A stretch of 64,000 nucleotides of DNA. Origin: Bdellovibrionales bacterium (GTDB lineage: Bacteria; Bdellovibrionota; Bdellovibrionia; Bdellovibrionales; JAGQZY01). The notes beneath the pieces were generated by a model. The model saw nothing but the letters and a program-made list of their open reading frames with translations. It had not been told where the DNA came from and did not search any database. The stretch's first letter is position 1; each line of letters starts with the position of its first letter. Positions 28,276-50,221 of this stretch are shown here, one piece after another. The position numbers and the translations under genes are program-made. The stretch spans positions 672,001 to 736,000 of the forward strand of contig CAXRHT010000002.1 in assembly GCA_964230645.1 (NCBI GenBank), in the 5' to 3' direction.

Positions 28276-31200
28276 TTAGTCTTTTCTGACTCGTACAAGT
28301 GTGCAGGTAATATCGTCTTCAGGCTCTACACCTTCGGTCATATCCGTAAGAGTTTCGGCAAACTTTTTTGAGGTCTGCTCCATATCTGGCCCTATGCATT
28401 TATTAAGAGCTTTGATGACTCGTCTGGTACTTATCATACGTCCCTTACTGTTCATAAGCTCATAAATTCCGTCTGTGGCTATAACAATGGTGTCCTCGTC
28501 TTTCAGATCATGTTCGATAGCACCGACTTTGAAGGTCCCGGGACACCCTAAAGGGCTTGAAGCTTCACTTAAGCTTGTGGTCTCCCCGGTTTTGTCCAAT
28601 ACGATGACTGGTGGACCACCGGCCGTCCAAATTTTCATTTTCTTTTCAACAGCATCAATTTCACAGATCACCATGGTCATCCAGTATTTACCGGAGCAAA
28701 CCTCTTGGAAAATGTCATTTAGGTTTTTAAGTCTATCAGCAAAGCTTTCCTCACCGGCTGAGTGCTGTAAGCTTTGAAAAATTCCAGCCACTACGGCGGT
28801 TACCATCGCAGCACCCGCACCGTGGCCTGTCACATCACCGACTGCCACCACGAGTTTGCTTTCTTCTTTATTTTCAAACCACCACCAGTCACCACCGGAC
28901 TGACTTGCGGACTCGTAACGGGTTGCCATATCAAAGTAAGAACTTTTTAATGTCGAGGTTGAAGGAAGAAGGAGTCCTTGCACCGCTTTGGTGACCTCTA
29001 AATCCTTGACCACTTCCCGTCTTTTTAACTCGAGAGCTGTGGATCTTGAAGCCTCAAAAGCCAGTGCGATTTGATTGGCAATTCCCATAAGAAACTGTAC
29101 GTCTTCAGCCACAAAGGCCCCACGATGAATCTGACTATCGAGGTAAAGCACTCCAATAAATTTATTTCCTGCTTTCAAGGGGGCGGCCACAATACTGCGA
29201 AGATCTTGAGCCACCGCACTTTTGGAGCCTAATAGTTCGCCCTCTTCAGTCCCTGTAACAAGAATGGGCTGCTGCTCCTCGACCACTTTTGAAATAATAG
29301 TGCTGGCATAGCCTCTGCCTTCTTTTAAATCTTGCTTTTGACTATCGCGACCAAGGGCAAATTTTAAACCTTTTGAGCCTTGGTCATCGAGTAAAAATAA
29401 GAAACCTCTTTGTGCGCCTAGAATGGATAAGATCTCATCAAGGGCTAAGCGAGCCTGTTCCTTTGGATCAAGAACCGCGCCAGAACCTAAACTGACCTCG
29501 AAAAGAACTTTTAATTTATTGGCTCTTTCTGCTGAATAAAGGAAAACGGCAATAAGTCTTGAAACTGTGTCCAAAACCTTTGCATCCGGTTCTGCAAAAA
29601 GTCCATCGGAGACCTTACTATCAAGGTAAATGGCTCCAACCACTTCATCTTGATGGATCAGAGGGGTGGCGATGACACTTTTTAAGCTATTAGCTACCAC
29701 ACTCTGTGCTCCCATTAGAGCTCCCTCACTGGTGGCAGCAATAATTTGAGTGCTTTTTTCTTCACAGACTTTTTGAATCAGAGTTTGGCTGTAGTTTTCA
29801 ATTTCTCTGACCTCGACTCCGCGAGAGTCTATGCCCTTTTCAAGTTGAAGCTCTGAGCTGCCCGCTTTTTTAAGAAACAAGAAGGCACGATCGGCCACCA
29901 TAGTTTTTAAAAGCTCTGACAAAATATTTTTTGTCATAGACTCCATGTCCGGTGATTTTGCGCATACCTGACTTATCGTCATTAAAGCTTCCATATGGTT
30001 TTCTAAAACTTCCACCGACTTCATATCACCACTGGAAACCTGTTGGCTTCGCGCCTCTTTGATTTTTAGTTGAGCCAACTCTTTTGAAAATTCATTACGC
30101 AATCGTGCACCACGATAGCCCCAACCATGTTCATCAGCCAAATCACTCGCCTGAGTGACATAATCAGTGAGTTCTTCGCTGTTATCTAATCGAGCCAGAT
30201 GAGCCCTTAACCGAAGAACTTGATATACTGCCCATGGATTATCACAGTCCTTGGCTAACTTTTCCACTTCATCGAGTGGCCCCCTAAGGGAGGCTGTTTT
30301 TCCATTAATAAAATTAAGTTCACAGTGAATGATCTGATAGTGACATTTCCAATGAGGAAGGGGGGAGGCCTTTTTCAGATCACTCAGGCAATGTTTTAAT
30401 CTCTTAAGCGCTTTCTTTTTTTCTTTCCCCTCGCTTACGCGGTATTCCTCAAGGGCTGCATAACTCATGTAAATAAACATGATTTTAAAAAACCAGGGAC
30501 TGGTCTCAGGGTTGACTTTGGATTGACGGAACTGAGTGATTAAATCATCGAGATGACTAACCCTCTCCCCTCTTTCCAGTTGATACAAAACTAAGTGTCC
30601 TAGATACCAGCACCAATCCAGATGTCCTTGAGGAACATCTTTGTATCTTTTTTCCAAATCCTGAAGAGTTTCCTTAAGTTCAGATTCGTATCCACCCACA
30701 GCGTAAACACCTAAGGCGACAGCCTCTGTGGCAGCGATAGGACCATTGGATTTCGTTTGATGAGCTGTTTTTAAACCCATATTGATAATTCTTAGAGCTT
30801 CTCTGCTGTAGCCTCTGATCAATAGGTTATTTCCTACCAAATCATTGGCAGTTGCGATCTGCCAACGAGGCGCCATCCACTTGCCATAATTAAAAAGCGT
30901 TTCTTTTTGAAAGTTTTCGGCTCTCAAAACATCACCTGACCAGTGAATACCCCAACCACACATGGAGCGGGTTAAGGCGACCAGTTGATTGTCTCCAGAC
31001 TCTTCCGCCCAACGAACAGCGTAGTCGGCCACACGGTTACAAGTCTTGGTCCACTGCCTCATCCCTAAATATATACAAAGACTAAAATAAGCCGGCAGAG
31101 ACTCTGGTCTTCGACCCACGTAGTGAGCGTGAATTAACATCCGAGGGACAATTTGAGTGGCTAGGTTCCATTTCAGCCCAATAAAAGTGGCGAAAAAACT

Positions 31201-33840
31201 AGGACTATAAAGTTTTAGGATCACTTTACGCTTCTCAAGCTCCTCGCCCGAGGCTTTGCCGTATCCCCACTGGGTAAAATATAAAAAGAGAACCTTTACC
31301 CACAGCCAGGCATTTAAAGTTTTCGCTAGAGGATTTGAGGATTTTAAGCTCTCTCCAAGGGACTTGAGACCCTTTTCACTTTCCTGCCATCCTTTAGCTC
31401 CTTGGTTTTCATTAAAGTAAGTGCTTGTTAAAAGGGAATGAATCCTTCCTCTAGTAAGAGGAGACTGAGCCACTTCGAGCACTCTTTGGCCATGCTCAAT
31501 GGCTTTGGTGCCATTTCCTAAACGGAAGTGAGCCACTCCTAAATTCTCATGGAGCTTTTCAAAATTTTGTCCCTGATCTTGGATATCGTATTTCTTACAA
31601 ACGGAATCGGCTGTTGTTAGTAGACGAACGGAATCTTCGTTAGAGAAATTTTGTAGAGATTGAATACCCGCTTCAAGGCTTGTGGAGTAAACTCGCTCAG
31701 GATTTTTTGAGATTTGTCCGCGGGCATAGTGATAAGCCATAGAATAAATATCTGTGGGTCTTTTTTCATCAAGAACTTCAGCGACTTTCTGGTGAAGCTC
31801 TTTGATATCATCCTGACCGAGCTTTTTAATAATCGCTTCAAGAACCCGGTCATGAACAAATTGAAACTCTTCTTCACTCACCTCTTCAAGGAGGTTGGCT
31901 TGAATTGCCTCATTAAGCGCCTTCTCAACTTGACCTGGCTTTTCGGTTAAAACAAAACCTAGCAATTCTTTATGAAACTTTCTTCCAATCACTCCAGCAA
32001 CAGTCAGCACGTCTAAACCAGCTTGGGAAATCTTGTTAATTCGTCCTATGATTAAATCAACCACATTGGTTGACACCATGAGACTGTCGAGATTCTCAAG
32101 GTCCACAAGCCACTGATCGCCGGCCCGATGAAGAACACCTTTATCAAACATGGAGTAGATGTATTGTGCTAAAACGAAGGGATTTCCTTGAGACTTTTCA
32201 GCCAGACGATTGACCACAGGTTCATCAAGAGGGCTTCCACCCAGGAGGTGAGAAATAATGTCACCAAGAGCCTTGTTTTCCAGAGGCTTTAAGCTCATGG
32301 ATTGGGAAAGAGAGCTCTCCCAGAGTTTTTCAACTTTCTTAAGAGCCGGAAGGCTGTCGGCGTCGTTTCGAGCGGTGAAGAGAATAACAACTCTTGCTTC
32401 TTGCAAACGTTCAAGAAGGTTTGATAGAACCCCACGACTGGCAGGGTCCAACCACTGCACGTCATCAATATGAAGAACCAATGTCCCCTGTTCTTTAGCT
32501 AACTGTATCAGGAATGTAGCGATACCACGAAAAAACTCATCCTGCCCAGCGCCTTCATGTTGGGAATTGGAATCGGAGTTTATAAGCTCACCAAGGTTTC
32601 TTGAGAGTCTCTTTACAAAGGTTTCATTTCCTTGTGAGGCCTGTTTTAATTTAGCGAAGGCTTTTTCACGTTTGTCTTCAGAAATACTATTAAGGGAATA
32701 CAAATAAGTTTCTATAGCTTCGCGCAAAGGCCCAAGAGGTGTTTGCTCAGTCAGATGACTTTTACCAAAGAGGTGCAGACTTCTTTCTGCCGGCAATGAT
32801 TCAATAAACTTTTTAACAAGATAGGATTTCCCCGATCCCGGCTCACCTTTAACAAGATAGGCCACACCCTCTTGGACGTCTTCTACTTTGAGCGAAGACT
32901 GAAGTTTGGCCATTTCACTTTCACGTCCTAGTAGAGGAAGTTCATTCAGTCGTCCCAGACGAAAATCTTTTTTACCAAGAGTGAGTTCCCCTTGCTCTTT
33001 CCAGTCTTGCTCTAAACTTTCAAGACTTGCGAGATCAGCACTTAAGCCTTCTGCCGTTTGGTAGCGATCTTCGGGATTTTTAGCCAAAAGCTTTTTCACA
33101 ATGGCTGTCACCGAGCCTCTTAGGGTCGAATTTTTTTGTTTAAGATTGGGGACCTCAGCTTTTGCATGCAGGTTTAAAAGCTCTGCTGTATTCTCAGAGA
33201 AGAAAGGAGGTTCTCCACAGAAAGTTTCAAAAAGAACAACTCCTAGTGAGTAGAGATCACTTCTTGCGTCCACCTTGTCTTCGCGCATCCCCGACTGCTC
33301 GGGAGCGGCATAAAGAAAGGTACCGACCGCTTCTTGCTTTTCTGTCTTTAAGACTTCTGACTTCTCAGCAAATCCAAAATCGATAAGCTTAGCTTGCCCG
33401 TCTTCACAGATGAAAATGTTTTGGGGTTTTACGTCGCGATGGACGAAGCCATTGCGATGCACCTCTCCGAGAGCCCCTGCTATATCACAAGCTAAGCGAA
33501 GAGCTTGGGTCTCAGAGAAAGAGGATTTTTCCAATTTATCAGAGAGTTCTTCGCCGTGAAGGATCTCCATGACCACAAAGGGTTGATCATTATGCTCGCC
33601 AAGTTCGATCACACGGGTCAGTGCTGAGTGATTGAGACGGCTGAGGATTTCGGCTTCATAGCGAAAGCGCAAACTGGCAGAAGCATAATCTTCGCTGACG
33701 TCTTTTCTCAAAAGTTTTAATGCATACTCAACACCCTCACGTTCGACTCGATAAACATAGCCTGTCGCGCCTTCGCCGATCTGTTCGATCAAGGTGTAGG
33801 ATCCAATGGTTTCTGCAAGCTTTTTTGCGTCACTAGACAT
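28276..33840 (-). CDS. Ser/Thr kinase-AAA ATPase-helical-GAF-GAF-PP2C(SpoIIE) multidomain signalling protein
   Basis: IGEGATG, HRDVKPQN, DFG, APE; GEPGSGKS and DDVQWLD; two GAF repeats; GGDW, GDVTGHG, TDG, DD. Confidence 0.92.
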   Translation of the reverse strand: MSSDAKKLAETIGSYTLIEQIGEGATGYVYRVEREGVEYALKLLRKDVSEDYASASLRFRYEAEILSRLNHSALTRVIELGEHNDQPFVVMEILHGEELSDKLEKSSFSETQALRLACDIAGALGEVHRNGFVHRDVKPQNIFICEDGQAKLIDFGFAEKSEVLKTEKQEAVGTFLYAAPEQSGMREDKVDARSDLYSLGVVLFETFCGEPPFFSENTAELLNLHAKAEVPNLKQKNSTLRGSVTAIVKKLLAKNPEDRYQTAEGLSADLASLESLEQDWKEQGELTLGKKDFRLGRLNELPLLGRESEMAKLQSSLKVEDVQEGVAYLVKGEPGSGKSYLVKKFIESLPAERSLHLFGKSHLTEQTPLGPLREAIETYLYSLNSISEDKREKAFAKLKQASQGNETFVKRLSRNLGELINSDSNSQHEGAGQDEFFRGIATFLIQLAKEQGTLVLHIDDVQWLDPASRGVLSNLLERLQEARVVILFTARNDADSLPALKKVEKLWESSLSQSMSLKPLENKALGDIISHLLGGSPLDEPVVNRLAEKSQGNPFVLAQYIYSMFDKGVLHRAGDQWLVDLENLDSLMVSTNVVDLIIGRINKISQAGLDVLTVAGVIGRKFHKELLGFVLTEKPGQVEKALNEAIQANLLEEVSEEEFQFVHDRVLEAIIKKLGQDDIKELHQKVAEVLDEKRPTDIYSMAYHYARGQISKNPERVYSTSLEAGIQSLQNFSNEDSVRLLTTADSVCKKYDIQDQGQNFEKLHENLGVAHFRLGNGTKAIEHGQRVLEVAQSPLTRGRIHSLLTSTYFNENQGAKGWQESEKGLKSLGESLKSSNPLAKTLNAWLWVKVLFLYFTQWGYGKASGEELEKRKVILKLYSPSFFATFIGLKWNLATQIVPRMLIHAHYVGRRPESLPAYFSLCIYLGMRQWTKTCNRVADYAVRWAEESGDNQLVALTRSMCGWGIHWSGDVLRAENFQKETLFNYGKWMAPRWQIATANDLVGNNLLIRGYSREALRIINMGLKTAHQTKSNGPIAATEAVALGVYAVGGYESELKETLQDLEKRYKDVPQGHLDWCWYLGHLVLYQLERGERVSHLDDLITQFRQSKVNPETSPWFFKIMFIYMSYAALEEYRVSEGKEKKKALKRLKHCLSDLKKASPLPHWKCHYQIIHCELNFINGKTASLRGPLDEVEKLAKDCDNPWAVYQVLRLRAHLARLDNSEELTDYVTQASDLADEHGWGYRGARLRNEFSKELAQLKIKEARSQQVSSGDMKSVEVLENHMEALMTISQVCAKSPDMESMTKNILSELLKTMVADRAFLFLKKAGSSELQLEKGIDSRGVEVREIENYSQTLIQKVCEEKSTQIIAATSEGALMGAQSVVANSLKSVIATPLIHQDEVVGAIYLDSKVSDGLFAEPDAKVLDTVSRLIAVFLYSAERANKLKVLFEVSLGSGAVLDPKEQARLALDEILSILGAQRGFLFLLDDQGSKGLKFALGRDSQKQDLKEGRGYASTIISKVVEEQQPILVTGTEEGELLGSKSAVAQDLRSIVAAPLKAGNKFIGVLYLDSQIHRGAFVAEDVQFLMGIANQIALAFEASRSTALELKRREVVKDLEVTKAVQGLLLPSTSTLKSSYFDMATRYESASQSGGDWWWFENKEESKLVVAVGDVTGHGAGAAMVTAVVAGIFQSLQHSAGEESFADRLKNLNDIFQEVCSGKYWMTMVICEIDAVEKKMKIWTAGGPPVIVLDKTGETTSLSEASSPLGCPGTFKVGAIEHDLKDEDTIVIATDGIYELMNSKGRMISTRRVIKALNKCIGPDMEQTSKKFAETLTDMTEGVEPEDDITCTLVRVRKD

Positions 33841-33847
33841 CAGTGTT

Positions 33848-33875
33848 TTATCGGCAAAAGCTGTAGGATTATTTA
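33848..33875 (-). promoter_or_regulatory. Sigma-28 (FliA)-like promoter; transcript probably leaderless
   Basis: TAAA-N16-GCCGATAA ending 7 nt before ATG 33840; no SD sequence. Confidence 0.6.
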
Positions 33876-33955
33876 CGCAACCAAAAAGCTCTGGTCGTTG
33901 GTCGGACTTGCCTTAGGGAAGTGGTGCTGAGGGCTCAAAAAAGTTAAGATATTCT

Positions 33956-34849
33956 GTGATGATACAGTTTTCCAAAAATCTTATGCCCAGGCCCTATCGT
34001 CGAGTCAGTGTCCAAAAAATAGAGGGCCCACTGGATGAGAAAAATCTAGTAAATTACTTTAATGGCAAAGAAGCTTTCATGGCGACCGATTATATTGTGG
34101 TCAAAGGACAGGGCACAGCCGTTTTAATGGTTGAAAAAGAGGAGAGAAAAGAAGCTCTCTTTTCAAAAATAGTTAAGACACAGATCATTTCCCTCCCTAA
34201 AAACTGTCACTATATCCAGGATGAGGTAGTGGATGTTGGGAACCCCTCTCACCTCACCCGAAAGTTTTGGGACCTTAATCTGAGCGAGGACTCTACCTTA
34301 GTTGTGGAGGGTGCCTATGGGCATGTTAATTTTATTCATAAGCCCTCCCCTCTTAAACTGAAAGTGATAGATCTAGTTCCTCCTAAAACATCAAGACTTT
34401 ATGATCTTGTTTTAAAAGCCATTGAGTTGGCGGACCTCCCTCCTATTCTTTTGGAGGCTGATTTCATTGACGTCAATGATATCGCAAAAGAGTCAGGTTT
34501 TAAGGACTGTATATTTCCCTGCCGAGCCTCTGGATTAGAAGCTCCGGGAGAAACTTTTTTTCTCGACGAGCATCCGGCTAAAAACAAAGCCCCACTTATA
34601 GGCTGTGAGAGAACAGAGCAAATTTATCAGCACTTTTACGGTGAAAAACCCCAACGGGTTGAAACCTGTCCCCAAAAAATTAAAAGCAAAGGCAAAATTG
34701 CGCAAATCACTCGCTGTTGTCTTTTGCAAGACTCTACAAATATGGAAGAGAATCGTGGAATTATCCCTTGGGGAGGAAATGTGCATCATGTGATCTCTGT
34801 TTTAGAAAAGCTTTGTGAGGTGAATCAGATTCCCTGGGAAAAGAATTAA
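33956..34849 (+). CDS. Cys-rich conserved protein (DUF7714-like); candidate XcbA-type final enzyme of bacterial coenzyme M synthesis
   Basis: FPCRASG, LIGCERT, CP and RCC motifs; stop codon overlaps the end of the xcbE-like gene; family and role inferred from recollection and context. Confidence 0.6.
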   Translation: MMIQFSKNLMPRPYRRVSVQKIEGPLDEKNLVNYFNGKEAFMATDYIVVKGQGTAVLMVEKEERKEALFSKIVKTQIISLPKNCHYIQDEVVDVGNPSHLTRKFWDLNLSEDSTLVVEGAYGHVNFIHKPSPLKLKVIDLVPPKTSRLYDLVLKAIELADLPPILLEADFIDVNDIAKESGFKDCIFPCRASGLEAPGETFFLDEHPAKNKAPLIGCERTEQIYQHFYGEKPQRVETCPQKIKSKGKIAQITRCCLLQDSTNMEENRGIIPWGGNVHHVISVLEKLCEVNQIPWEKN

Positions 34850-35826
34850 GCGCTAAAAGTACCCTCTTGGTAACGGTCTGAAAAAAGTGCTGCCTCCCCG
34901 CCTGTCATCAATAGAACCAGGTTTTCATTTTTACTAAAATGATTGGAATCAATCAGAGCTTTTGTTCCCATCATGGCTTTTGCGCTAAAAACAGGATCAA
35001 GGAGAATTCCAAACTTTCTCAAGAAATCCTTACTAAACTTTGCCACATCCGGAGTGACAACTCCGTAGCCTTCCCCAAGGAACTCATCGAAAATTTCAAT
35101 TCCCTCAAGAGAATTGGTGGTTTTATCAAGCTCACCAACAAGGCTTAAAATTTTTTCAAGACTTTTAGTTTTATTTTTACTGGTCGCAAAACCGGTGACT
35201 TTCCAGTTAGCTGGGTGCGCTCTTTTACCTTGGTGAATCCCAGCGATTGTGCCGCCACTTCCGACAGGAAGGATAAGCCGATCCATATTGATTTTTAGAT
35301 CTGCTGTTTGCTCTTTGAGCTCTTTAACGAAGTCGATCCATCCCAAGGCTCCGGTGGCTGAAGCCCCTCCTCGTGGGATGAAATAAGGTTTCTTACCTTT
35401 TTTAGTGAGTTCCTCACAAAGCCTCTTTGCCAATTCATCGGCTGAAGTTCGTGGATCTTTCCCTGAAAAATTTAGGTGCGCTCCGCTCATTTTTGAGATG
35501 AGAAGGTTGCCTGTAGGGGTCGCGACCTCTTTTCCGTAAAGTGCCAAATGGCATGCTAGTTTAGATTTTGAGGCGGCCCCTGATATAATTCGTAAGTGAT
35601 TGGACTGTGGTCCTCCAGCAGCAACAATGTCGGTAGCCCCTTGGGAAAGAGCTTCCGCAATGAGGTACTCAGCCTGTCTTACCTTATTGCCACCACCCAT
35701 AAAGCCTGAGAGGTCCTCACGCTTGAGCCAAATGTTACGATTCCACACTTTTGAAAGGGACTCACAAAAGTGAAGTGGGGTCGGATAAAGACCCAGATCC
35801 ACTTTTTTAAAGGACGTGCGACTCAC
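34846..35826 (-). CDS. PLP-dependent D-cysteine desulfhydrase/ACC deaminase family (XcbE-like)
   Basis: KRED...GGNKVR, G..QSNH, GSGGT.AG, LDPV. Confidence 0.88.
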   Translation of the reverse strand: MSRTSFKKVDLGLYPTPLHFCESLSKVWNRNIWLKREDLSGFMGGGNKVRQAEYLIAEALSQGATDIVAAGGPQSNHLRIISGAASKSKLACHLALYGKEVATPTGNLLISKMSGAHLNFSGKDPRTSADELAKRLCEELTKKGKKPYFIPRGGASATGALGWIDFVKELKEQTADLKINMDRLILPVGSGGTIAGIHQGKRAHPANWKVTGFATSKNKTKSLEKILSLVGELDKTTNSLEGIEIFDEFLGEGYGVVTPDVAKFSKDFLRKFGILLDPVFSAKAMMGTKALIDSNHFSKNENLVLLMTGGEAALFSDRYQEGTFSA

Positions 35827-37220
35827 TCAAGCTCCCCTTTTATTTTCTCTAGAAACTCTTGGTCTCGATGGTCTTCTTTTTCTGAAATCTCAAGGGCCCT
35901 TTCACATAGCTTCAAACTCTGGCCGAGGTGGTTGTTGTAATCTAGAAATTGTGAACATTCTGATTCGCTAAGCACGGCCCTAAGGCTCTGATCCCTTGTA
36001 ATAACTGATTCTAAGGACTGTGAGCTGGATTTTGATTGATGTATTTTGTCTCGAACCCACTGACGGGCCGAGGCTAAGCCCCACTCATTAGCGAGTCTCA
36101 TCATGAGAGCCTCGCTTAAAATAAGACCTTGAGTGGATTTTAGATTCTCAAGCATCCTTTCTTTTTTGACCTCAAGGTTTTGAAAAAGCTCACCAGATAT
36201 TTTTAAACAGGCCGAAGTCATCGCTAGAATTTCTGGCCAAACCGCCCATTCCACTTTCCAAGCCTGCCCGTCTCTTTCATGTTCATGAACTAATGACTCT
36301 TGTAAAACAGCCGCCTTATGTCTGATGATTCGTGCGAGACTGCCGATTTGCTCTGACTTTTCAGGGTTTCTTTTTTGGGGCATCGTCACACTTCCGACAC
36401 TCTCAGGCTTTGAGCCCTCTAAGACTTCTCCGATCTCTGTTCGTTGCAAATTGTAGATCTCATGGCCCATTTTAGAAAGACTTCCGCATATCGATGAGAG
36501 AATGAGGGCAAATTCTAAAAGTGAGTCTCTAGAGTTTGTCCAAGCAAGTGTGGGCACTTTAAGTTTTAACTCTTGCGCGAAGCTTTTTTGTAAGTCAAAT
36601 GCACTTGATCCATAACCACTCATGACTCCGACACTTCCTCCCAATTGAACAAAACCAATACGAGGGTGAAGGTCTTTGAGGCGATCTAAATGTCGTCTGA
36701 TTTCCTGTAACCAAAGGCTTACTTTATAACCAAAGGTAATCGGAGCGCCCCACTGACCGTGTGTTCTACCAATCATGGGTGTTTTTTTATGCTCTTTTAT
36801 CAATGTTATTAAACTCTTTTCGATTTCCTTTAGTTGCTTAAACGAGCTTTCCCAGAACTTTACTAATACTCCAGAGAGCCAAGTGTCCGTGATATCTTGT
36901 ACTGTGCAACCGTAGCCAATGTATTCCCCCTCAGGGCCGAGGTGCTTGCGTAGTTGATCAAAAAGTCCTTGAAAGGAGTGGCCATTTTCTTGGTAGGAAG
37001 TTCTCAACTCCTCCCAATTCACTTTATAGTCTGTTAGGCCCTCTTTGATCTTATTTCCCGTGTTTTGGGGGATTATATTGAGTTTCTCTTGATGGGTGGC
37101 CAAAATAACAAGAATCTCAACCCAGGCCTGTAGTTTTGTTTCCTCATCCAGTAATTTCGCCACTGATGGATCCACCCAACTTTGAGAATAAATCTTGGAA
37201 TCTAAGATCGATAAACTCAT
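35823..37220 (-). CDS. Adenylosuccinate lyase-family C-N/C-S lyase (XcbD-like)
   Basis: T.QDI.DT, GRTHGQ, GSVTMPQKRNP, HERD. Confidence 0.85.
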   Translation of the reverse strand: MSLSILDSKIYSQSWVDPSVAKLLDEETKLQAWVEILVILATHQEKLNIIPQNTGNKIKEGLTDYKVNWEELRTSYQENGHSFQGLFDQLRKHLGPEGEYIGYGCTVQDITDTWLSGVLVKFWESSFKQLKEIEKSLITLIKEHKKTPMIGRTHGQWGAPITFGYKVSLWLQEIRRHLDRLKDLHPRIGFVQLGGSVGVMSGYGSSAFDLQKSFAQELKLKVPTLAWTNSRDSLLEFALILSSICGSLSKMGHEIYNLQRTEIGEVLEGSKPESVGSVTMPQKRNPEKSEQIGSLARIIRHKAAVLQESLVHEHERDGQAWKVEWAVWPEILAMTSACLKISGELFQNLEVKKERMLENLKSTQGLILSEALMMRLANEWGLASARQWVRDKIHQSKSSSQSLESVITRDQSLRAVLSESECSQFLDYNNHLGQSLKLCERALEISEKEDHRDQEFLEKIKGELE

Positions 37221-38647
37221 AATAAGGCCTCTTTAGCCTCAGAGACTATTTTTTTCTTTTTATTTTTCCAATCTTCATTCTGCTTGTTGGAGAGTTCTTC
37301 TAACCTTTGACTCCAACTTTTAAAATTAGACAGACTTTTCAGTAACGATGGGCTTGAAGCTCCGCCTCGATCCTTACGCCGCTCAACACTTTTTTGGGAA
37401 CTCAATACTGTCTGCCACTGCTCAGCACTCCAGTTTAAAGGCTGGCCGGTCTTTTCCGAAAAAACCTTACTAAAGGTTTTAGAAAAATCTCTCACTCCCA
37501 CCCCTCTTAATGCTTCTCCCACAAGAGAGTGAGCTTGGGAGTGACTCATCTTTTTGTTAGCAACCAGTTCCTCCACCAAATCCATAGCTAAAAGGGAGGA
37601 TTCTTCCCCTCGGCTTTTTAGGCGTTGGGTGTTCACTTGCAGCCCCTCTAACACCCGAGTTAACTTTTGATAAGATTCCAAAACTAGATCCAAGCTTTCG
37701 GGTAATTCGTTATAGAGAAAAATACGGTTATCAATCTGATTGGTTCCTGTCCTACCGAGGCAAAGAGCTCCTGAAACTCGGCCAGAAAGCAAACTAGCAA
37801 CTCCACGAGCAAAAGTCAGATCATAGGGATTCTTTTTTTGTGGCATCGCCACACTTCCGCGACAAACTTCGTCGGAAAAACCAAAATAATCAAACTCCTG
37901 AGTGGCCCACACGAGGAAGTCTTCACTCAGGCGGGCTAATACTAGCGAATCACTGGCAAGGAGCCAGGCCACTTCCAAAGCGACATCACTCTGCCAGACC
38001 CCATCGCGACTGTTCTCAACACAGTCCTCAAATCCAAGGCGGTTGGCTAGTTTCTCTCGATTTAAAGCCATGGTGGAGCCATTGGTACTACCCACTCCTG
38101 CGGGAGAGAGATTGAGCCTTTGAAAACAGGGTTGAGCGCGATCCGCATTCCTTAGAATGGGACCGAGAAAACTTGATAAATAATACCCAAGAGTTGAGGG
38201 CTGAGCCGGTTGCAAGTAGGTGTAGTCAGCCATAGGAGTGTCTTTATAAGAGTGTGATTTTTCCAGTAAGACCTCAACAAATTTCAGACGCGCTTGCATC
38301 AGTGCAAGGCTTTTTTCTTTAATAAGTAAGTGGAAAGCCACGGTGGTTAACTCCCGACGGGCCCGTCCCACACCGTACCACTGAGCCGCCTCTTTACTTC
38401 TTTCTTTAATCAGTTGCTCGCGATTTTTATAGAGGTCTCCCCATTTCTCACTAAAGGGAACGCTATTAGGATTCATATCCTGCAAAACTAAAAGAGCCTT
38501 GAGAAGGGACTCTCCCACCTCTTGAGGAATCAATTGATTTTCTAAAAGATTCAATACATGAGCGAGATCGCTGTAGCCAAGGTAAGGCCAAAAACTTTGC
38601 GCTTGCTTGAGCTCCCATGTTGTTGCTGCCGTAAAGGTGTCTTCCAT
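37217..38647 (-). CDS. Argininosuccinate lyase-family enzyme (XcbC-like phosphosulfolactate lyase candidate)
   Basis: GSVAMPQKKNP signature; DYTYLQ replaces the ArgH GYTHLQ. Confidence 0.85.
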   Translation of the reverse strand: MEDTFTAATTWELKQAQSFWPYLGYSDLAHVLNLLENQLIPQEVGESLLKALLVLQDMNPNSVPFSEKWGDLYKNREQLIKERSKEAAQWYGVGRARRELTTVAFHLLIKEKSLALMQARLKFVEVLLEKSHSYKDTPMADYTYLQPAQPSTLGYYLSSFLGPILRNADRAQPCFQRLNLSPAGVGSTNGSTMALNREKLANRLGFEDCVENSRDGVWQSDVALEVAWLLASDSLVLARLSEDFLVWATQEFDYFGFSDEVCRGSVAMPQKKNPYDLTFARGVASLLSGRVSGALCLGRTGTNQIDNRIFLYNELPESLDLVLESYQKLTRVLEGLQVNTQRLKSRGEESSLLAMDLVEELVANKKMSHSQAHSLVGEALRGVGVRDFSKTFSKVFSEKTGQPLNWSAEQWQTVLSSQKSVERRKDRGGASSPSLLKSLSNFKSWSQRLEELSNKQNEDWKNKKKKIVSEAKEALL

Positions 38648-38654
38648 ATTAAGC

Positions 38655-39482
38655 CTAACAATCCTTAAAAGTGTCCCAACGTAAACCCATGCGCAGGGCT
38701 TCAAGGCCCAGTAGATCACTGGGAGCCACATTGCCAAGGTTGACGTTGGTGCCGAACTTTTTAATCAGCAGGGCTTGTTGTCTTTTTTGGGGAGCCTCCC
38801 AGATCAGTTTTTCCGGTTGATCGAGTTGTGAAGTTAAACGTTGAAACAGTTTGTTATTCACTTCCCCATGTTCATCAAAAATTCCCACACCCTGCCCGGA
38901 CTCCCTGGCTTCAACAACCACAAACTCAACACCATTTTCCAAGTCCTGTTGGATTTGTTCGGCTAAGAGCTCGGGCTCTGGCTGAAGTTTAGGATCTTTC
39001 TTCCCCACTTCACTGATCACTCTTAGGCCTAAATCTTGCGCTCTTTTTTGAGCCTCTTTTCGATCGGCCAAGGGGATCTCAAAAAAGCCATCGGAGACTT
39101 CCACCATATTGAATCCAAGGGATTTAATTTTTTTAAAAAAGGCCGGCAAGGTACCGGCACGGTAGGAGATTTCGAACAAAGACCCACCGGGGAGCACATC
39201 GACTTCAGCCGCTCTTAAAACGGCAATTTTCTGTTTTAAAAGGGGGGAACTTATTAAGGCCGGAGTGCCAAAACTTAGTTTGACCTGATCAATGTAGTGA
39301 CTCAGATAGCTGACAAAGTGCTCACTCTCGCTCACTCCGAGTGTTCGATCAAGGATCATCGTGAGTCCGTCTTGTCTTGGTTTTACAGAGCGTTGTGGGA
39401 GATGAGGGAGAATTTCTCTCCACTCCTCATGAGGCAGAGATTGACTATAGGGTAAAACATTTTTTTGACGAATGGCGCTCAA
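38655..39482 (-). CDS. comA: (2R)-phospho-3-sulfolactate synthase (ComA/XcbB)
   Basis: KPR..GLTM.LD, K...GT, GG.LFE, EVSDG, SEVGKK, EARESG, WEAP...QQ, NLGN...LEALR.GLR.DT; TTG start with GGAG RBS. Confidence 0.93.
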   Translation of the reverse strand: MSAIRQKNVLPYSQSLPHEEWREILPHLPQRSVKPRQDGLTMILDRTLGVSESEHFVSYLSHYIDQVKLSFGTPALISSPLLKQKIAVLRAAEVDVLPGGSLFEISYRAGTLPAFFKKIKSLGFNMVEVSDGFFEIPLADRKEAQKRAQDLGLRVISEVGKKDPKLQPEPELLAEQIQQDLENGVEFVVVEARESGQGVGIFDEHGEVNNKLFQRLTSQLDQPEKLIWEAPQKRQQALLIKKFGTNVNLGNVAPSDLLGLEALRMGLRWDTFKDC

Positions 39483-39518
39483 GGCGGGCTCCCCTTCTTT
39501 ATGTTTCTTCAATTATTA

Positions 39519-39549
39519 AAAAGGTTTAGAGACCCTCTCTAAACCTTTT
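39519..39549. terminator. Hairpin terminator between the decarboxylase gene and comA
   Basis: AAAAGGTTTAGAGA-ccc-TCTCTAAACCTTTT perfect stem with T tracts on both strands. Confidence 0.65.
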
Positions 39550-39582
39550 CATGACGCCTTAAAAAAGCCTGCTAGTTTAACT

Positions 39583-41016
39583 CTAGGCACTTTTCTTTAG
39601 ACTCAATTCTCTGCCACCTTCTCTGAGATGCTCTAATAATGCGTCCACATCTTTTTGAGTGACCCGATGGTTCACACAGCAAATTCGAAAAGCAAATTGA
39701 TCATTTAAAACTGTTCCGCCAATGAAAACCTCACCCTTAGCTTCTGCGCGCTCAAGAAGTCTTCGGTTCAATTGATCGAGATCCTCGCCCGAATTTTCTC
39801 CCCGGTATCGAAAACAAACGACGGAAAGACCTGAGTCACCGACAACTTCAAATTCATCATCTGCGGCCAATTGTTTTTTAAACTCATCCATTAAGTGAAT
39901 GTTAGTTGAGATCGCGTCCCTAAAACCTTGGGCTCCGTAAATGCGAAATGCCAACCAAAGTTTAAAGGCTTTAAACCCACGAGAGAGTTGGAACCCATAC
40001 TCCATATAGTCCATGCGTCCGGCCTCTACGTCTGCAGAAAGATAAGGAGGAAGAAGGCTATTTACCTGACGCAAAAGTTTTGGCTCTTTTAAAAGGGCAC
40101 AACCCGCTTCGACAGGAGCGTAAAGCCATTTGTGTGGGTCAATGGCAATGGAGTCACATCGATCCATACCCTTAAATAAGGGAGCCAGATGAGTGGCGGC
40201 CGCCGGAGCCCCGTAAGCTCCATCAACATGGAACCATAAATTATGTTTTTCACAAAGATCGGCCAGAGCCTCAAGATCATCGACAGCCCCTGTGTTGACC
40301 GTTCCGGCATTTCCCACCACACAAAAAGGCTGCAGACCTTGTTTTTTGTCAGCGACAATCTTTTTTTCAAGTTTATCTAAATCAATTTTACAATCGGAGT
40401 TTGCCTGAATTTTCACAAACTGATCTTTTCCCATACCCAGAGCACTTAAACTTTTATCAACACAGGAATGGGTTTCAGTGGACCCATAGATCACTAAATT
40501 ATGAAGACCTTCTTTTAAGGTCAGGCCGGCTCGATCAAGAGCAATGTCACGTGCGGCATGCAAGCAAGTGAAATTGGCATGAGAGCCTCCAGTGGTAATA
40601 ATCCCGCCGTAGTTGGAAGTTAATCCTGTGAAGTCAGCAAGCCAACTGACCACGGTTTTTTCAATCTCTGCGGCAGCCGGTGCAATATGCCATTTGCCAC
40701 AATTTTGATTGATCGCTGCGGCCAGCATATCTCCTAAAATCCCAGCTTGATGACCACAAGAGGTCACGTAAGCAAAAAATCGCGAACTAATATTCCAAGT
40801 AGAGCGTTCAGAAATGGTTTTCATGGCTTCACGGATAATACTCTCAGCATCCCCACCTTTGTCGGGTAAAGTCTGATGATAGGGCTTGGCGATTTCCTCA
40901 GGGGTTTTATCGGGAAAAACTTTTCTTTGGTCGAGTGACTCGTAAAGGTCCGCGATCTCATCTGCGGCAACATGTAACAAATTGCGAAATTCCTTATGAG
41001 AAAAGTCTAAAGACAT
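39583..41016 (-). CDS. Group II PLP-dependent amino-acid decarboxylase (aromatic/DABA decarboxylase-like)
   Basis: GGS.AN, H.C..K, AGT.NTGA.D, HVDGAYG, DPHKW. Confidence 0.92.
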   Translation of the reverse strand: MSLDFSHKEFRNLLHVAADEIADLYESLDQRKVFPDKTPEEIAKPYHQTLPDKGGDAESIIREAMKTISERSTWNISSRFFAYVTSCGHQAGILGDMLAAAINQNCGKWHIAPAAAEIEKTVVSWLADFTGLTSNYGGIITTGGSHANFTCLHAARDIALDRAGLTLKEGLHNLVIYGSTETHSCVDKSLSALGMGKDQFVKIQANSDCKIDLDKLEKKIVADKKQGLQPFCVVGNAGTVNTGAVDDLEALADLCEKHNLWFHVDGAYGAPAAATHLAPLFKGMDRCDSIAIDPHKWLYAPVEAGCALLKEPKLLRQVNSLLPPYLSADVEAGRMDYMEYGFQLSRGFKAFKLWLAFRIYGAQGFRDAISTNIHLMDEFKKQLAADDEFEVVGDSGLSVVCFRYRGENSGEDLDQLNRRLLERAEAKGEVFIGGTVLNDQFAFRICCVNHRVTQKDVDALLEHLREGGRELSLKKSA

Positions 41017-41099
41017 GGCCTACCCCTCTGGTATTTTAACTCCTTAATTTTAAACGAGGGGCGGTGCAATTTGTATAGCTCCAAAGACTAGTTTTAGCT

Positions 41100-41126
41100 T
41101 TAAGTTCCTATAATTAGGGCCGATAA
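41100..41126 (+). promoter_or_regulatory. Sigma-28-like promoter
   Basis: TTAAGTTC-N11-GCCGATAA upstream of the dehydrogenase gene. Confidence 0.6.
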
Positions 41127-41167
41127 GGGTATAACACCCAATCCTGAAATTTTAACAAGAGGACATT

Positions 41168-42295
41168 ATGTTAAACGCCAATCATGAAAAAGTTTTTGAA
41201 GTGGTCGATACCGAACTTGATTTTAAAGGTTGGATTGCCATTCATACATTAAAAAACAATATCGCTTTTGGTGGCTGCCGTTTTGACCTATCAGTGGATA
41301 AAGAAATGGTCATGGAACTGGCTCGTTGTATGACTCTTAAACTAGCCTCTCATGGATTACCTACCGGAGGAGCAAAGGGCGGTCTCTGCGTGGACCCTCG
41401 CCGTCCTGACATCAAAGAGGTTATAAAATCTTTTGCGCAGAAATCAAAAGAGATACTCACCTCACAGGTCATTTTAGGAAAAGATCTCGGCGCTACGGAT
41501 GAAATGATGGTAGCCCTTTACCAGGCTCTTGATGTTCCTCAAATGCACCTAAGTCAAAAACACTGGCCCCATCGCAACGTGCCTGATCGCTTGAATTTAC
41601 TTCGTGGCTATCGCAAACATATGACAGGACTGGGAGTGGCCTTTTCAGCGCACTCACTGTTTAATTCTCGCCTGAGTGAGCGCAAAGTCATTATCCAAGG
41701 AGCCGGAGCTGTTGGAATGGGAGCGGCCTTTCGCTTCGAAGAGTTTGGAGCCAAAGTTGTTGGGATCAGTGATGCCAAACACTGCATTTATCGGTCCGAA
41801 GGTTTTAGTTTTTTAGAACTGCAACAATGGGTGGAGCAAGGGCAAATTCAGACAACCCGTCTTCCCGAAAACGTGGAGTGCTTAGAGAACTCAAAACTTT
41901 TTGAACAAACGGCTGACATTTGCGTTCTTGCCGCCACTTCTAATAGTGTAACCAGAGAGCATGCCAGTAGTATGAAAGTTGAAGCTGTGATAGAGGGATC
42001 AAATTTTGGTTTACAATCTGAGGCCCGAAAGTGCTTACAAGACCAGAAGGTCGTTGTTGTGCCTGATGTGATTGCAAGTAGTTCCAGTGCTGCTATGGTC
42101 TGCCATCAAATTTCTCAAGGGAATTTATTCACCCAGGGGGAGCTGTGGGACAAGATTCTTAGCTCCATCAAAGAGGCTGTGCAAAAATCAGCCGAGGTCG
42201 CAAGCATTGAAAATTGTGATCTAAGACAAGCCTATACGGAAATCGTTGCGCCTGAACTTCTTGAAAAGTCTCAGACACAAAAACAAGTGGCTTAA
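41168..42295 (+). CDS. Glu/Leu/Phe/Val amino-acid dehydrogenase
   Basis: GG.R, M..K, GGAKGG, D.G, TG.GV, QG.GAVG, EG.N, V.PD. Confidence 0.9.
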   Translation: MLNANHEKVFEVVDTELDFKGWIAIHTLKNNIAFGGCRFDLSVDKEMVMELARCMTLKLASHGLPTGGAKGGLCVDPRRPDIKEVIKSFAQKSKEILTSQVILGKDLGATDEMMVALYQALDVPQMHLSQKHWPHRNVPDRLNLLRGYRKHMTGLGVAFSAHSLFNSRLSERKVIIQGAGAVGMGAAFRFEEFGAKVVGISDAKHCIYRSEGFSFLELQQWVEQGQIQTTRLPENVECLENSKLFEQTADICVLAATSNSVTREHASSMKVEAVIEGSNFGLQSEARKCLQDQKVVVVPDVIASSSSAAMVCHQISQGNLFTQGELWDKILSSIKEAVQKSAEVASIENCDLRQAYTEIVAPELLEKSQTQKQVA

Positions 42296-43378
42296 TTAAA
42301 GCTGAGCAATGTAAATAAAAGAGCCCCCTGCACGCACGCCGGGCTCAATGATTTTGCAACCAGACTCTTTAAAGATCCCGTGCCAGTCATCCTGGGTTCT
42401 GGGAAGTCCTTGCCTTGAAAGGTAGTGAATCAAACGGTAATCAAGACGTCCAAAGTGTTTCAATGGAGCCCCACCGGGATTAAAAGCATCAAAGTCCTCC
42501 ACTTCTATGGCAAGAAGATTCTTACCCTTAAACTGGGCCTGAAGGGACTTTATAACTTTGATGATGGCGTCCCGACCATCCCGACCAAATTCATGCAGCA
42601 TATACATCGCAGTGATAAAATCCACTTTTTCGACTTCTTCTGCACTCAAGGGCAAATCCTCAGCCCCCACCTCGGCCTGATAAAAAGACAATCGGTTTTC
42701 AAGCTCAAAATTCTTTGAGTTGCCATTGGCCTGAGAGAGGGCCTCTTTGGACATATCCACACCCACTCCTGAAATTTCTGGATTTAAGCGTAAAAGCTGC
42801 ATCAGAAAATCACCGGTACCACAACCAAGATCTAAGACACATTCAACGCCATGGTTCTGTAGAGTGTCCAAAACTTTGGGAATGGTAAAGGCACAAGTCG
42901 CATAAGCCGTTCCTGCAGCCGCGTGACGAGTGGATCTATCGAAGTAGGGATCATCAAGGGGTCTTTTCTTAGCTAAAATATCGGTAAGATCGGTGAGAAC
43001 TCTTTTATAGGCTCCGGGATAAATATTAAGAACCCCTCGGGTGTAAGCATTAAAATAACGCTGTCCTTTTTCTGTGGGAATGAATTCATCACCTTGGACT
43101 TCAAAGGCCCCACAGCCGGTGAGATAATTCATCAGATGTTCCATTGTGGTTTCATCAGCATCCAAAGCCTTTGCGGCCTCACTCACCTTAAATCGACCCT
43201 TTTCACGCAGATACTCGTAAAAACCGCAGTCTGACAATGCCAGCAGGACATTGGTCAAGATAGACTGGGAGATCATATTGCGAGCCTCAACGATGGGATC
43301 CACTGGACCTTGCTGTTGTTCACGCACAATGGCGGCCTCTTTAAGTATGTCGTAAGAATTTGAATCTTTTTTGCTCAT
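42296..43378 (-). CDS. SAM-dependent methyltransferase, MppJ/MrsA-like (alpha-keto-acid C-methyltransferase type)
   Basis: N-terminal wHTH; LDLGCGTG; YMLHE and LIH histidine pair; W..IF..SG. Confidence 0.8.
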   Translation of the reverse strand: MSKKDSNSYDILKEAAIVREQQQGPVDPIVEARNMISQSILTNVLLALSDCGFYEYLREKGRFKVSEAAKALDADETTMEHLMNYLTGCGAFEVQGDEFIPTEKGQRYFNAYTRGVLNIYPGAYKRVLTDLTDILAKKRPLDDPYFDRSTRHAAAGTAYATCAFTIPKVLDTLQNHGVECVLDLGCGTGDFLMQLLRLNPEISGVGVDMSKEALSQANGNSKNFELENRLSFYQAEVGAEDLPLSAEEVEKVDFITAMYMLHEFGRDGRDAIIKVIKSLQAQFKGKNLLAIEVEDFDAFNPGGAPLKHFGRLDYRLIHYLSRQGLPRTQDDWHGIFKESGCKIIEPGVRAGGSFIYIAQL

Positions 43379-43467
43379 GATGTGACTCCCTCTTGCCTAG
43401 GAATTTATTGTAGGAAAAAATCAAACCACTGAGGAGTCCAATTTTTAAAGGATCTTTATTGATCGTG

Positions 43468-44325
43468 TTAAGCCCCCTGCCGACTTTTGATATTCACATC
43501 TTCTGTCCGCCGGGGTTTTGTGATCTCTAAAACAGAAATAGCCTTTAAAAGATCAATAAACTCCTGGGCCTCGGGTGTTTGAGCCGATGATCCCTCAAGG
43601 CGAACTTTATTTTGAATTTGATGATAAAAGGTTTCATCACTCTTCCCCTCAAATAGGGAATTAAAAGTTTCTTTGAGCCCCTTGCAGTTGAGCAAAAGGT
43701 TTTTGTAGTTTTCCGTGATAGCCACAAAATCATCAACGAATTCATTTTTACCTTCTAGCTCCTCTTGTCCCACATAAAGAAAATTGGGTTTGAGTAAGCC
43801 TTTTCGAATCGCAGCAGAAACTCGAGGATTTGATGTGCCCAAGTGAACACCTTTTAGTTTGGGACCAAAAAGTTGTTGGCAGAACTCAAAGCGATGCCGC
43901 AACAGTGTGTGATAAAAACGGTTACTACGAAATTTTTTTAAAGTGTAGCAACGAGAAATGACTGGAAATCCTTCATGACTAAAACTATGACATATCTTTT
44001 CTGCGACAGCTCCCGCGGCAAAAAAAACTCTTTCTCCACTCCCCGTCTCGCCATAGTAAAAAAACAAATGAGTCGGACGTCTTTGATTTTCAAAGACCTT
44101 CAGATTGTTTAGAACCGGGCCAGAATTGAGTGCATCAAACCACTTCCAGGTATGGGAGTAACCGCCCTGCTTCAACTCGCTAAACAAACGAATGAGATCT
44201 TCGCAACGAGCTTGTGAAGTGGCCACCACTCGGCGCCACCCTAATTTAAATAATGTTTCCTTGGGAACTTGGACCTGCACTTCATAGGATGTTTCGGGTA
44301 AACTTAATTTTAAAGCAACACTCAT
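43468..44325 (-). CDS. Hypothetical protein, possible GNAT fold
   Basis: ISRCYT...FRS.RFY resembles GNAT motif A; start set at ATG 44325, downstream of the promoter motif. Confidence 0.55.
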   Translation of the reverse strand: MSVALKLSLPETSYEVQVQVPKETLFKLGWRRVVATSQARCEDLIRLFSELKQGGYSHTWKWFDALNSGPVLNNLKVFENQRRPTHLFFYYGETGSGERVFFAAGAVAEKICHSFSHEGFPVISRCYTLKKFRSNRFYHTLLRHRFEFCQQLFGPKLKGVHLGTSNPRVSAAIRKGLLKPNFLYVGQEELEGKNEFVDDFVAITENYKNLLLNCKGLKETFNSLFEGKSDETFYHQIQNKVRLEGSSAQTPEAQEFIDLLKAISVLEITKPRRTEDVNIKSRQGA

Positions 44326-44369
44326 AAACGACCTGCTTGATGGCTTGGTAATTTTTCTTGATAGTTTTT

Positions 44370-44397
44370 TTATCGGAGTGGCTGGGATCAAAGTTTA
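44370..44397 (-). promoter_or_regulatory. Sigma-28-like promoter
   Basis: TAAACTTT-N12-TCCGATAA. Confidence 0.6.
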
Positions 44398-44541
44398 GCT
44401 ATTTCTATTGATTCTTTTAACGAGACAATCCCTGTGAGCGAACGTTTAAGAAAGAGACAGTTTGCAAAGACTCGTAAATGTGTCATGATTAATAGACGCA
44501 TCAATTGGCTCTAATTTGTTCTCAAACTATTATCAACGGGA

Positions 44542-44964
44542 GTGCTCATGATCAAAATTACAGCTCGTATGCAAAATCAATTGCGTTGTGAATTAACTCA
44601 CAAAAATTTAAACAGTTCATTAACCACAGACGCTCCTAAAACTCTCCAAGGCCTAGAGGAAAACTTCTCTCCCACTGATTTAGTGGCAAGCGCTCTAGCC
44701 ACTTGTGTACTCGTGAGCATGGGTGTGGTCGCCAGACGTCATGATATCAACCTAGAAGGTACGGTGGCCGAAGTACAAAAGAAAATGACAGACACTCCAA
44801 AACGACGCATTGAAAGCCTTGATTTGGTCGTAAAAATAAAAACAAATGTACTTAGTAAGCAAAAAAAGCTTCTGGAAGCCGCCGCTCATTCTTGTCCCGT
44901 GGCCTCAAGCCTTCATCCCGACACCAAGCTTTCTTTACGTTTTGAATATGAGGAACAGTCATGA
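44542..44964 (+). CDS. OsmC/YhfA-family protein
   Basis: TDAP....G....FSPTDL...AL..C and A..CPV..SL. Confidence 0.9.
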   Translation: MLMIKITARMQNQLRCELTHKNLNSSLTTDAPKTLQGLEENFSPTDLVASALATCVLVSMGVVARRHDINLEGTVAEVQKKMTDTPKRRIESLDLVVKIKTNVLSKQKKLLEAAAHSCPVASSLHPDTKLSLRFEYEEQS

Positions 44965-46007: not shown

Positions 46008-46012
46008 GGTCT

Positions 46013-47619: not shown

Positions 47620-47638
47620 TCATCTCCTCAAAACTTTT

Positions 47639-48982: not shown

Positions 48983-48999
48983 TTACTAGAACTCCTCAA

Positions 49000-50196: not shown

Positions 50197-50221
50197 TTGC
50201 ACTCCTTCAATAGACTCTAGC

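Follow-up and report, generated by a model that had tools for sequence, protein, structure and literature searches.

We identified, in a 64,000-nucleotide stretch of a Bdellovibrionales genome (hereafter the window; G000:C2:672001-736000, from a 3.78 Mb assembly of 3 contigs rated 99.59% complete), five adjacent genes that by homology are a complete, divergent xcbABCDE set and that, judging from their predicted products, very probably make coenzyme M (CoM). The pathway itself is known; what is new is the presence of xcb in Bdellovibrionales and its linkage to a giant kinase gene. Taking the locus as a whole, we tentatively propose that the CoM made here is a protective thiol, free and under regulation, and not a cofactor of alkene metabolism.

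The window encodes a complete xcb gene set

The five open reading frames (ORFs) and their best-matching models are as follows.

33956..34849, plus strand: xcbA, [2Fe-2S]-type thioaldehyde reductase family (DUF7714; PF24830), 297 aa; NF052538, 294.8 bits (cut-off 150)
34846..35826, minus strand: xcbE, predicted pyridoxal phosphate (PLP) enzyme of D-cysteine desulfhydrase fold; NF052537, 255.7 bits (under the cut-off of 450)
35823..37220, minus strand: xcbD, PurB-like predicted 3-sulfopropionylcysteine synthase; NF052536, 495.6 bits (under the cut-off of 600)
37217..38647, minus strand: xcbC, ArgH-like predicted phosphosulfolactate phospho-lyase; NF052535, 403.9 bits (under the cut-off of 575)
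38655..39482, minus strand: xcbB/comA, predicted phosphosulfolactate synthase; TIGR03849, 297.7 bits (passing the cut-off of 280)

For each of the five adjacent ORFs, the matching Xcb or ComA model is the top NCBIfam match (E values from 6e-76 to 1e-148), a concurrence that is far beyond chance. A first-pass annotation, made from the letters and their ORFs alone, had proposed four coupled minus-strand genes of the XcbB/C/D/E families and a convergent 297-aa XcbA candidate, and this stands in all but one detail. All ORFs lie where it had placed them: comA and xcbC are separated by 7 bp, xcbC/xcbD and xcbD/xcbE overlap by 4 bp each, and the inverted xcbA converges on xcbE, with which it shares a TTAA at the stop codons, while diverging from the giant kinase gene. 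The description of the XcbA ORF as Cys-rich, however, comes down to 8 Cys in 297 aa. The start codon of comA is TTG, preceded by GAAGGGGAG.

ComA/XcbB aligns with PDB 1QWG (E = 5.5e-52), the EVGKK, ARESG and EVSDG motifs included, and Xanthobacter autotrophicus XcbB, XcbC, XcbD and XcbE, used as queries, each find the corresponding window gene as their top match in the genome (34-44% identity). XcbC carries YTYLQ (within DYTYLQ) and GRARRE, as in X. autotrophicus XcbC, where ArgH has THLQ and GRSRND; XcbD carries RTHGQ and GSVTMPQKRNP; and XcbE combines the GPQSN and PRGGA found in XcbE proteins with LDPVF, a Tyr to Phe change shared with the Nocardioides and Mycolicibacterium enzymes. The xcbE gene is the only DcyD-family gene in the genome, and its product scores 235.8 bits with the CuyA model as against 255.7 with the XcbE model. 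In a lyase tree of 50 selected rows, the window proteins fall inside the XcbC clade (SH-aLRT support 99) and the XcbD clade (98), apart from ArgH and PurB, and housekeeping ArgH (348 bits), PurB (474 bits) and FumC pass their cut-offs at other sites in the genome. We therefore rejected a reading of the lyase genes as housekeeping argH and purB, on the strength of the separate ArgH and PurB copies and the tree placement, and by its motifs xcbE is probably not a housekeeping dcyD either; the first-pass annotation, which had taken DYTYLQ as a sign that the ArgH-like protein is probably not a true ArgH and had assigned both lyases to the Xcb route, is supported on this point.

Four Cys residues of XcbA (C189, C217, C238 and C254) are invariant across 84 homologues, and C255 is nearly so. 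The protein is 37.6% identical to the copy on X. autotrophicus plasmid pXAUT01, and its closest relatives are P0001 (72%) and P0002 (54%). Distant XcbA/DUF7714 homologues (P0026-P0058), at ~25% identity, keep the five Cys where aligned; two of them are labelled Methanosarcina, in which the last CoM step has been assigned to marker protein 16 (PMC12068725). On pXAUT01 itself (CP000782.1, 19801-20900; L017), the xcbA frame beside xcbB1 shifts frame part-way and has no annotated coding sequence.

Distribution and genomic setting of xcb

Among 384 genomes of the order, xcbA exceeds the cut-off in three, namely the window genome (G000) and G639 and G640; the latter two belong to a single genus of a different family, and one more match, of 21 bits, does not rise above noise. 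The order label Bdellovibrionales comes by way of protein P0023, which carries that label at its source and which the XcbA of G640 matches. No xcbA was found in 40 relatives or in 400 genomes of the phylum, and three further ComA matches among 301 phylum genomes have no xcb genes in the surrounding DNA examined. Both G639 and G640 keep all five xcb genes, with Xcb proteins 30-43% identical to those of the window. In G640, the C-terminal part of a second PurB/XcbD-like lyase lies at a contig edge (G640:C45 24-485; L127), 9 kb from the full xcbD.

In run X1, possibly the sample from which the genome came, a contig of 26 kb covers window positions 27721-45999 with zero differences, and runs X3 and X4 of the same study contain shorter pieces that agree with the window; given these contigs, a chimeric assembly is unlikely. 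Composition gives no sign of recent transfer (GC content 44.4%, against 42.9% for the genome, standard deviation 1.6%). In G002 and G008, which belong to the same genus as G000, the homologue of the AraC gene at window position 52427 lies ~5 kb from homologues of the genes found at 8.5-17.4 kb in the window, and the interval contains no xcb; the xcb region is thus variable. Just past the kinase gene, at ~27650-27770, is a repeat with many diverged copies, marked by a depth spike and loose ends in 4 runs and possibly of the repetitive extragenic palindromic (REP) type, and toward the right side of the variable region lies a HipA-family kinase of a toxin-antitoxin pair (55276-56502).

The 98 xcb loci examined outside these genomes comprise 49 with EaCoMT or CoA-transferase, 8 with MtaA/RamA/MtrH-like proteins and 41 with neither; many of the last are on short contigs, and a number hold 2-KPCC-like genes. 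The first-pass annotation had presented a setting free of alkene genes, which the searches of G000 support but which is not unique to it, xcb without alkene genes occurring in other genomes. True EaCoMT is present in 1 of 14 Chloroflexota genomes (74%), the other 13 giving a weak, partial or no match. At eight Chloroflexota loci, mostly from Anaerolineae (L002-L004, L007, L009, L010, L012 and L014), the neighbours of xcb include an MtrH-like protein, a RamA/AcsV-like activase, a corrinoid protein and either one or two methyltransferases of the MtaA family, of which one exceeds the PRK06252 cut-off, in genomes with no true EaCoMT; these neighbours suggest CoM as a bacterial methyl carrier. On a Methylocystis iwaonis plasmid (L020), xcb adjoins OsmC and a Nit1C/DUF1116 cluster, and a broken etnE fragment, with nothing more of etnE, lies ~20 kb upstream. 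Metagenome loci L087, L095, L115, L117 and L119 have carbamate-kinase-like neighbours in common.

Tested CoM-using enzymes were not found in the genome

The first-pass annotation had reported no epoxide-carboxylation genes nearby, and none was found across the near-complete genome either. PF01717 (EaCoMT/MetE family) has no match in G000, in a search with nine of 14 controls positive, and the family was not found in G639 or G640 either; an EaCoMT query and PF02332 (diiron monooxygenase) also found nothing in these three genomes, the pXAUT01 control being positive for both. Queries with XecA, EtnE, XamA/E and EtnC had no match in G000. A search of G000 for 2-KPCC gave only 24-27% matches among 4 disulfide oxidoreductases, three of which are LpdA and the fourth a PRK06370-like FAD disulfide oxidoreductase (G000:C1:454980-456419). 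The MtaA/CmuA family has no match in G000 or G639 and scores 21 bits in G640, as compared with 228 bits in the control G683, and the single URO-D match in G000 is HemE-like. The tested alkene, epoxide and methyl-transfer CoM enzymes were thus not found genome-wide, in searches that did not extend to methyl-CoM reductase or heterodisulfide reductase.

Searches for glutathione synthesis were similarly negative, with no match to gshA or gshB in G000 and no GCS2 in the five order genomes examined. Two PF02955 matches (63 and 23 bits) were not accepted as glutathione synthetase, being partial, and an E. coli GshB query found nothing. Elsewhere in the genome, the PRK06370-like oxidoreductase is a candidate CoM-disulfide reductase, and a peroxiredoxin-glutaredoxin hybrid and a disulfide reductase adjoin an OxyR homologue (G000:C1 ~976160-978330; L027), though no glutathione synthesis was found.

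A giant kinase, an OsmC-like gene and a predicted partner switch are linked to xcb

In setting the cassette at 33956..39482, the first-pass annotation captured the five genes but missed linked features beyond these coordinates, which we list here with an inverted repeat and a putative exporter.

28276..33840, minus strand: 1,854-aa Ser/Thr kinase-AAA-GAF-GAF-SpoIIE(PP2C) protein (Pfam), divergent from xcbA
39519..39549, no strand assigned: inverted repeat, perfect and rich in A/T, with arms of 14 bp and a loop of 3 nt, immediately upstream of comA and overlapping a weak sigma70-like match
44542..44964, plus strand: OsmC/Ohr-like protein (PF02566; C55, C118; Asp46 at the Ohr/OsmC Glu position)
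47639..48982, minus strand: predicted PAS-EamA fusion exporter (Pfam)
50393..50908, minus strand: STAS-like protein with CxxC zinc ribbon (anti-anti-sigma-like) and a conserved Ser, from alignment; its G639 homologue has a weak STAS_2 match (E = 7e-4)
50905..51732, minus strand: histidine-kinase-like ATPase (anti-sigma-kinase-like), from an Atlas HATPase_c_2 match, a weak lead

With the central 491 residues of the kinase as query, 15 of the 384 order genomes matched. Besides G000, close orthologues occur just in G639 and G640 (~42% identity in this search, 433-456 bits), the other 12 genomes reaching at most 26% and 116 bits; because close orthologues are present in exactly the three genomes with xcbA, the kinase co-segregates with xcb in the order. 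The G639 kinase (1,861 aa; 44.8% identity over 1,853 aa) diverges from xcbA as in the window, the G640 copy sits on another, short contig, and the three form one clade with a support of 100 in a 6-row tree.

Ohr/OsmC peroxidases combine two Cys spaced by about 60 residues with a catalytic Arg and Glu. In the OsmC-like protein, C55 and C118 are invariant in our alignment and Asp46 stands at the position of the Glu; by these features it fits the 'Ohr-like' third group of PMC5384416. The corresponding gene in G639 and G640 lies directly 5' of xcbA, its stop overlapping the xcbA start in G639. An OsmC family member thus stands beside xcb in all three order genomes, and does so at 21 of the 98 other xcb loci, or 21 of the 52 loci of at least 10 kb. 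A complex prediction for XcbA with the OsmC-like protein scored 0.00 and gave no verdict.

A HATPase-like and STAS-like pair also stands beside xcb in G639 and G640, where the best G000 match of the HATPase is the window gene at 50905; a paralogue of the STAS-like protein is encoded at 51891-52406 (plus strand), and no sigma factor was seen in the island. PAS-EamA genes are found in G000, G639, G640 and the xcb-free G002 (4 of 20 chosen genomes) and adjoin xcb just in G000 and G640. The inverted repeat upstream of comA may be an operator or a terminator; no second copy with fewer than 4 mismatches occurs in the genome, and we rejected the idea of a regulon built on it. Scans for promoters and for terminators did no better overall than on shuffled sequence, with counts of 24 (shuffled, 24.6) and 23 (shuffled, 19.8), respectively.

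A second cargo and the islands of kinase paralogues

Between comA and the HATPase/STAS pair lie further predicted biosynthetic features.

39583..47619, no strand assigned: second, separate-looking cargo, with an aromatic-amino-acid-type PLP decarboxylase, a Glu/Leu/Phe/Val dehydrogenase and two GNAT(-like) proteins
39583..47619, no strand assigned: further cargo genes, with two MppJ/2-ketoarginine-type C-methyltransferases (42296, 44961) and an AstE-like deacylase
49000..50202, minus strand: flavin-dependent aromatic hydroxylase (HsaA/C2 type), from sequence comparison

In our reading, the genes at 39583-50202 are another module of the island, devoted to a second small molecule; the product may be an aromatic amine that carries beta-methyl, hydroxyl and N-acyl groups. 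The closest solved relatives of the cargo enzymes act on aromatic amino acids and 2-oxo acids; the decarboxylase, whose closest PDB entry is 4OBU, is co-oriented with comA, 100 bp upstream. No homologues of these tailoring genes were found in the xcb neighbourhoods of G639 and G640, and methyltransferase 42296 was absent from searches of both genomes; the xcb genes of G640 adjoin an HpaB-type hydroxylase that is unrelated to the HsaA/C2-type enzyme of the window. In G002:C94 (L144-L145), which has no xcb, four homologues are clustered, namely those of PAS-EamA, the dehydrogenase, methyltransferase 44961 and the GNAT-like protein, along with a distant kinase paralogue, an AMP-ligase, a ketosynthase III (KS-III) and TauD.

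The giant kinase-AAA-(GAF)-PP2C family recurs in Bdellovibrionales, at G002:C94, G543:C197 (L143), G640:C126 (L141) and G010:C4 (L142), with different neighbours each time; these include the AMP-ligase/KS-III/TauD set, a polyketide synthase with an amine oxidase (G543), and MmgE/PrpD with a haem-oxygenase-like diiron enzyme. A G639 operon (G639:C7 7468-14716; L146) encodes an adenylation-carrier protein, AurF-like and HMGL-like proteins, an aldo-keto reductase, a split thiamine diphosphate (TPP) decarboxylase and PAS-EamA. We take the split decarboxylase to be ComDE- or phosphonopyruvate-decarboxylase-like.

Proposed pathway and use of CoM

In X. autotrophicus, the XcbB stage of the route runs from phosphoenolpyruvate (PEP) and sulfite to phosphosulfolactate (PMC9457059). 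By homology to that system, XcbB would add sulfite to PEP, XcbC would eliminate phosphate to give sulfoacrylate, XcbD would add cysteine to sulfoacrylate, XcbE would cleave and decarboxylate the cysteine adduct to yield a thioaldehyde, and XcbA would reduce the thioaldehyde to CoM. XcbA takes a two-electron thiol reductant (PMC9457059), and the OsmC-like dithiol protein would supply either this step or CoM disulfides with electrons, of which lipoylated proteins are the probable source. This direction of flow is more probable than reduction of the OsmC-like protein by CoM, because Ohr enzymes are reduced by dithiols or lipoylated proteins, and not by monothiols (PMC5384416). The kinase-phosphatase and the HATPase/STAS pair would act as a partner switch that turns the module on. 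Sets of PP2C, HATPase and STAS proteins control stress responses. CoM would replace glutathione, whose synthesis genes were not found; in Methanosarcina, CoM is an antioxidant that protects from peroxide (PMC12713407). Because no tested consumer was found, and because of the linkage to the kinase and the OsmC-like gene, CoM is likely to serve as a protective thiol or possibly as a signal, and we rank protective use ahead of use as a signal or specialised metabolite.

Several observations weigh against a protective, CoM-based thiol system. XcbC, XcbD and XcbE fall below the curated cut-offs of their NCBIfam ('exception') models; all three sit on long basal branches, in the case of XcbC and XcbD beside the two other Bdellovibrionales copies, an arrangement for which the tree program warned of long branches meeting; and E. 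coli DcyD nests among the XcbE rows of its tree, with no separation. The genome has no evident sulfite source: neither cysDNCHIJ nor cysteine dioxygenase was found, TauD and mercaptopyruvate sulfurtransferase gave no match with the queries used, and the PAPS-reductase-family match is marginal, those in G639 and G640 being stronger. Relatives without xcb likewise lack GCS2, so that a lack of glutathione need not imply CoM. Since G639 and G640 share a genus, the three-of-three linkage counts roughly as two lineages, and a module inherited once, without repeated recruitment, may account for it. OsmC-family genes are common in the order (9 of 11 genomes tested, 1-3 each), as is the HATPase family (99 of 151 genomes), and OsmC also occurs beside epoxide-type xcb loci, so that it may serve synthesis only. 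The island holds no disulfide reductase, the reductant preference of Ohr enzymes tells against CoM acting on the OsmC-like protein, and Ohr-like proteins without the Arg/Glu pair may not be peroxidases (PMC5384416).

A close rival, which we consider less likely, assigns to CoM, or to some simple derivative of it, the role of a signal or specialised metabolite. It holds that this compound is an interchangeable cargo of islands that combine a kinase, biosynthetic genes and PAS-EamA, and that it is sensed by the cognate kinase-phosphatase. Its closeness comes from the kinase paralogues marking other biosynthetic islands: distant paralogues adjoin other small-molecule genes in G002 and G543, the xcb-linked kinases form a clade of their own, and PAS-EamA is present in all three xcb genomes. 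However, PAS-EamA is associated with different cargo in G639 and in the xcb-free G002 and so need not export CoM; and the neighbours of the G010 kinase show no clear biosynthetic family, 3 of the 12 paralogue genomes having been inspected. More doubtful still is a wider form of this proposal, in which predatory Bdellovibrionales use CoM, a cofactor known from catabolism, as a signalling thiol, the giant kinase-GAF-phosphatase senses CoM or redox state and drives the partner switch, and the CoM pathway is one cargo among sensor-coupled islands.

It is improbable that the divergent enzymes make another sulfonate, stop early or represent an idle acquisition. Their identity to the copies of Xanthobacter, Nocardioides and Mycolicibacterium, which is 30-44%, the sub-threshold scores of XcbC, XcbD and XcbE and the lack of an evident sulfite source could be so explained, but none of the five frames is disrupted, diagnostic motifs are present, and three genomes retain the whole set despite the divergence of their Xcb proteins. 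We give little weight to the idea that the adjacent enzymes build CoM or an intermediate (sulfoacrylate or sulfopropionylcysteine) into one natural product. The position of the tailoring genes, between comA and the OsmC/EamA/HATPase genes, with the decarboxylase co-oriented and close to comA, would favour it, as would the flavin hydroxylase beside xcb in G640; yet methyltransferase 42296 was not found in G639 or G640, the xcb neighbourhoods of these genomes hold no homologue of any tailoring gene, such homologues cluster without xcb in G002, and the nearest solved relatives point to aromatic amino acid and 2-oxo acid substrates. An equally slender prospect is that some other part of the genome encodes a CoM-dependent enzyme that has escaped recognition, such as one for the detoxification of epoxides or other electrophiles. 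The PRK06370-like oxidoreductase at G000:C1:454980 has no adjoining E2 partner, and methanotrophs retain CoM and EtnE without alkene monooxygenase (PMC11507031), but the OsmC-like protein is the sole candidate metabolic enzyme common to the three neighbourhoods.

Comparison with known systems and implications

Of the systems compared, the xcbABCDE genes of X. autotrophicus Py2 pXAUT01 (PMC9457059) share the five families, the coupled B-C-D-E order, 34-44% identity, the YTYLQ, RTHGQ and PRGGA motifs and the XcbA Cys motifs with the window; in contrast, the window xcbA is inverted after xcbE, the locus is chromosomal and linked to the kinase-phosphatase, the OsmC-like gene and the HATPase/STAS pair, and no xam or xec genes were found in the genome. 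The ethene/vinyl chloride clusters of Nocardioides JS614 (pNOCA01) and Mycolicibacterium NBB4 (pMYCCH.01) have the same five families and the XcbE Phe at LDPxY, but stand beside alkene monooxygenase, CoA-transferase and 2-KPCC-like genes, in the order B-A-D-E-C and at 31-37% identity. The epoxide-detoxification cluster of Methylohalobius crimeensis (PMC11507031) likewise has CoM genes without alkene monooxygenase and is patchy and probably transferred, whereas the methanotroph clusters retain EtnE and CoA-transferases, which were not found in the window organism. For Methanosarcina acetivorans, a glutathione-like thiol use has been proposed in cells without glutathione synthesis (PMC12713407); there the pathway is archaeal and the role a side one to methanogenesis, whereas in the window bacterium CoM would serve mainly in this way.

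The predicted regulatory genes recall the partner-switching stress modules RsbU/RsbV/RsbW and SpoIIE/SpoIIAA/SpoIIAB. The island encodes a PP2C (SpoIIE) domain, a HATPase-like protein and a STAS-like protein that has a conserved Ser, and these may interact; unlike those modules, the PP2C domain is fused to a Ser/Thr kinase, an AAA domain and two GAF domains, the STAS-like protein has a zinc ribbon, and no accompanying sigma factor was seen.

Archaeal-type CoM genes of unclear use have been seen in some bacteria (bioRxiv 10.1101/2021.03.22.436540). Our literature search, outside which most subscription papers fell, found no report that links CoM biosynthesis to Bdellovibrionales or to such a kinase. 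Wu et al. (PMC9457059) left open which reductant XcbA uses physiologically, a part for which the OsmC-like protein is a candidate, and the GAF domains of the kinase are candidate CoM sensors. The occurrence, in near-complete Bdellovibrionales genomes, of a full Xcb set that is linked to a specific sensor protein and for which no known consumer was found suggests that CoM has a role outside catabolism in bacteria, as a further low-molecular-weight thiol or as a signal.

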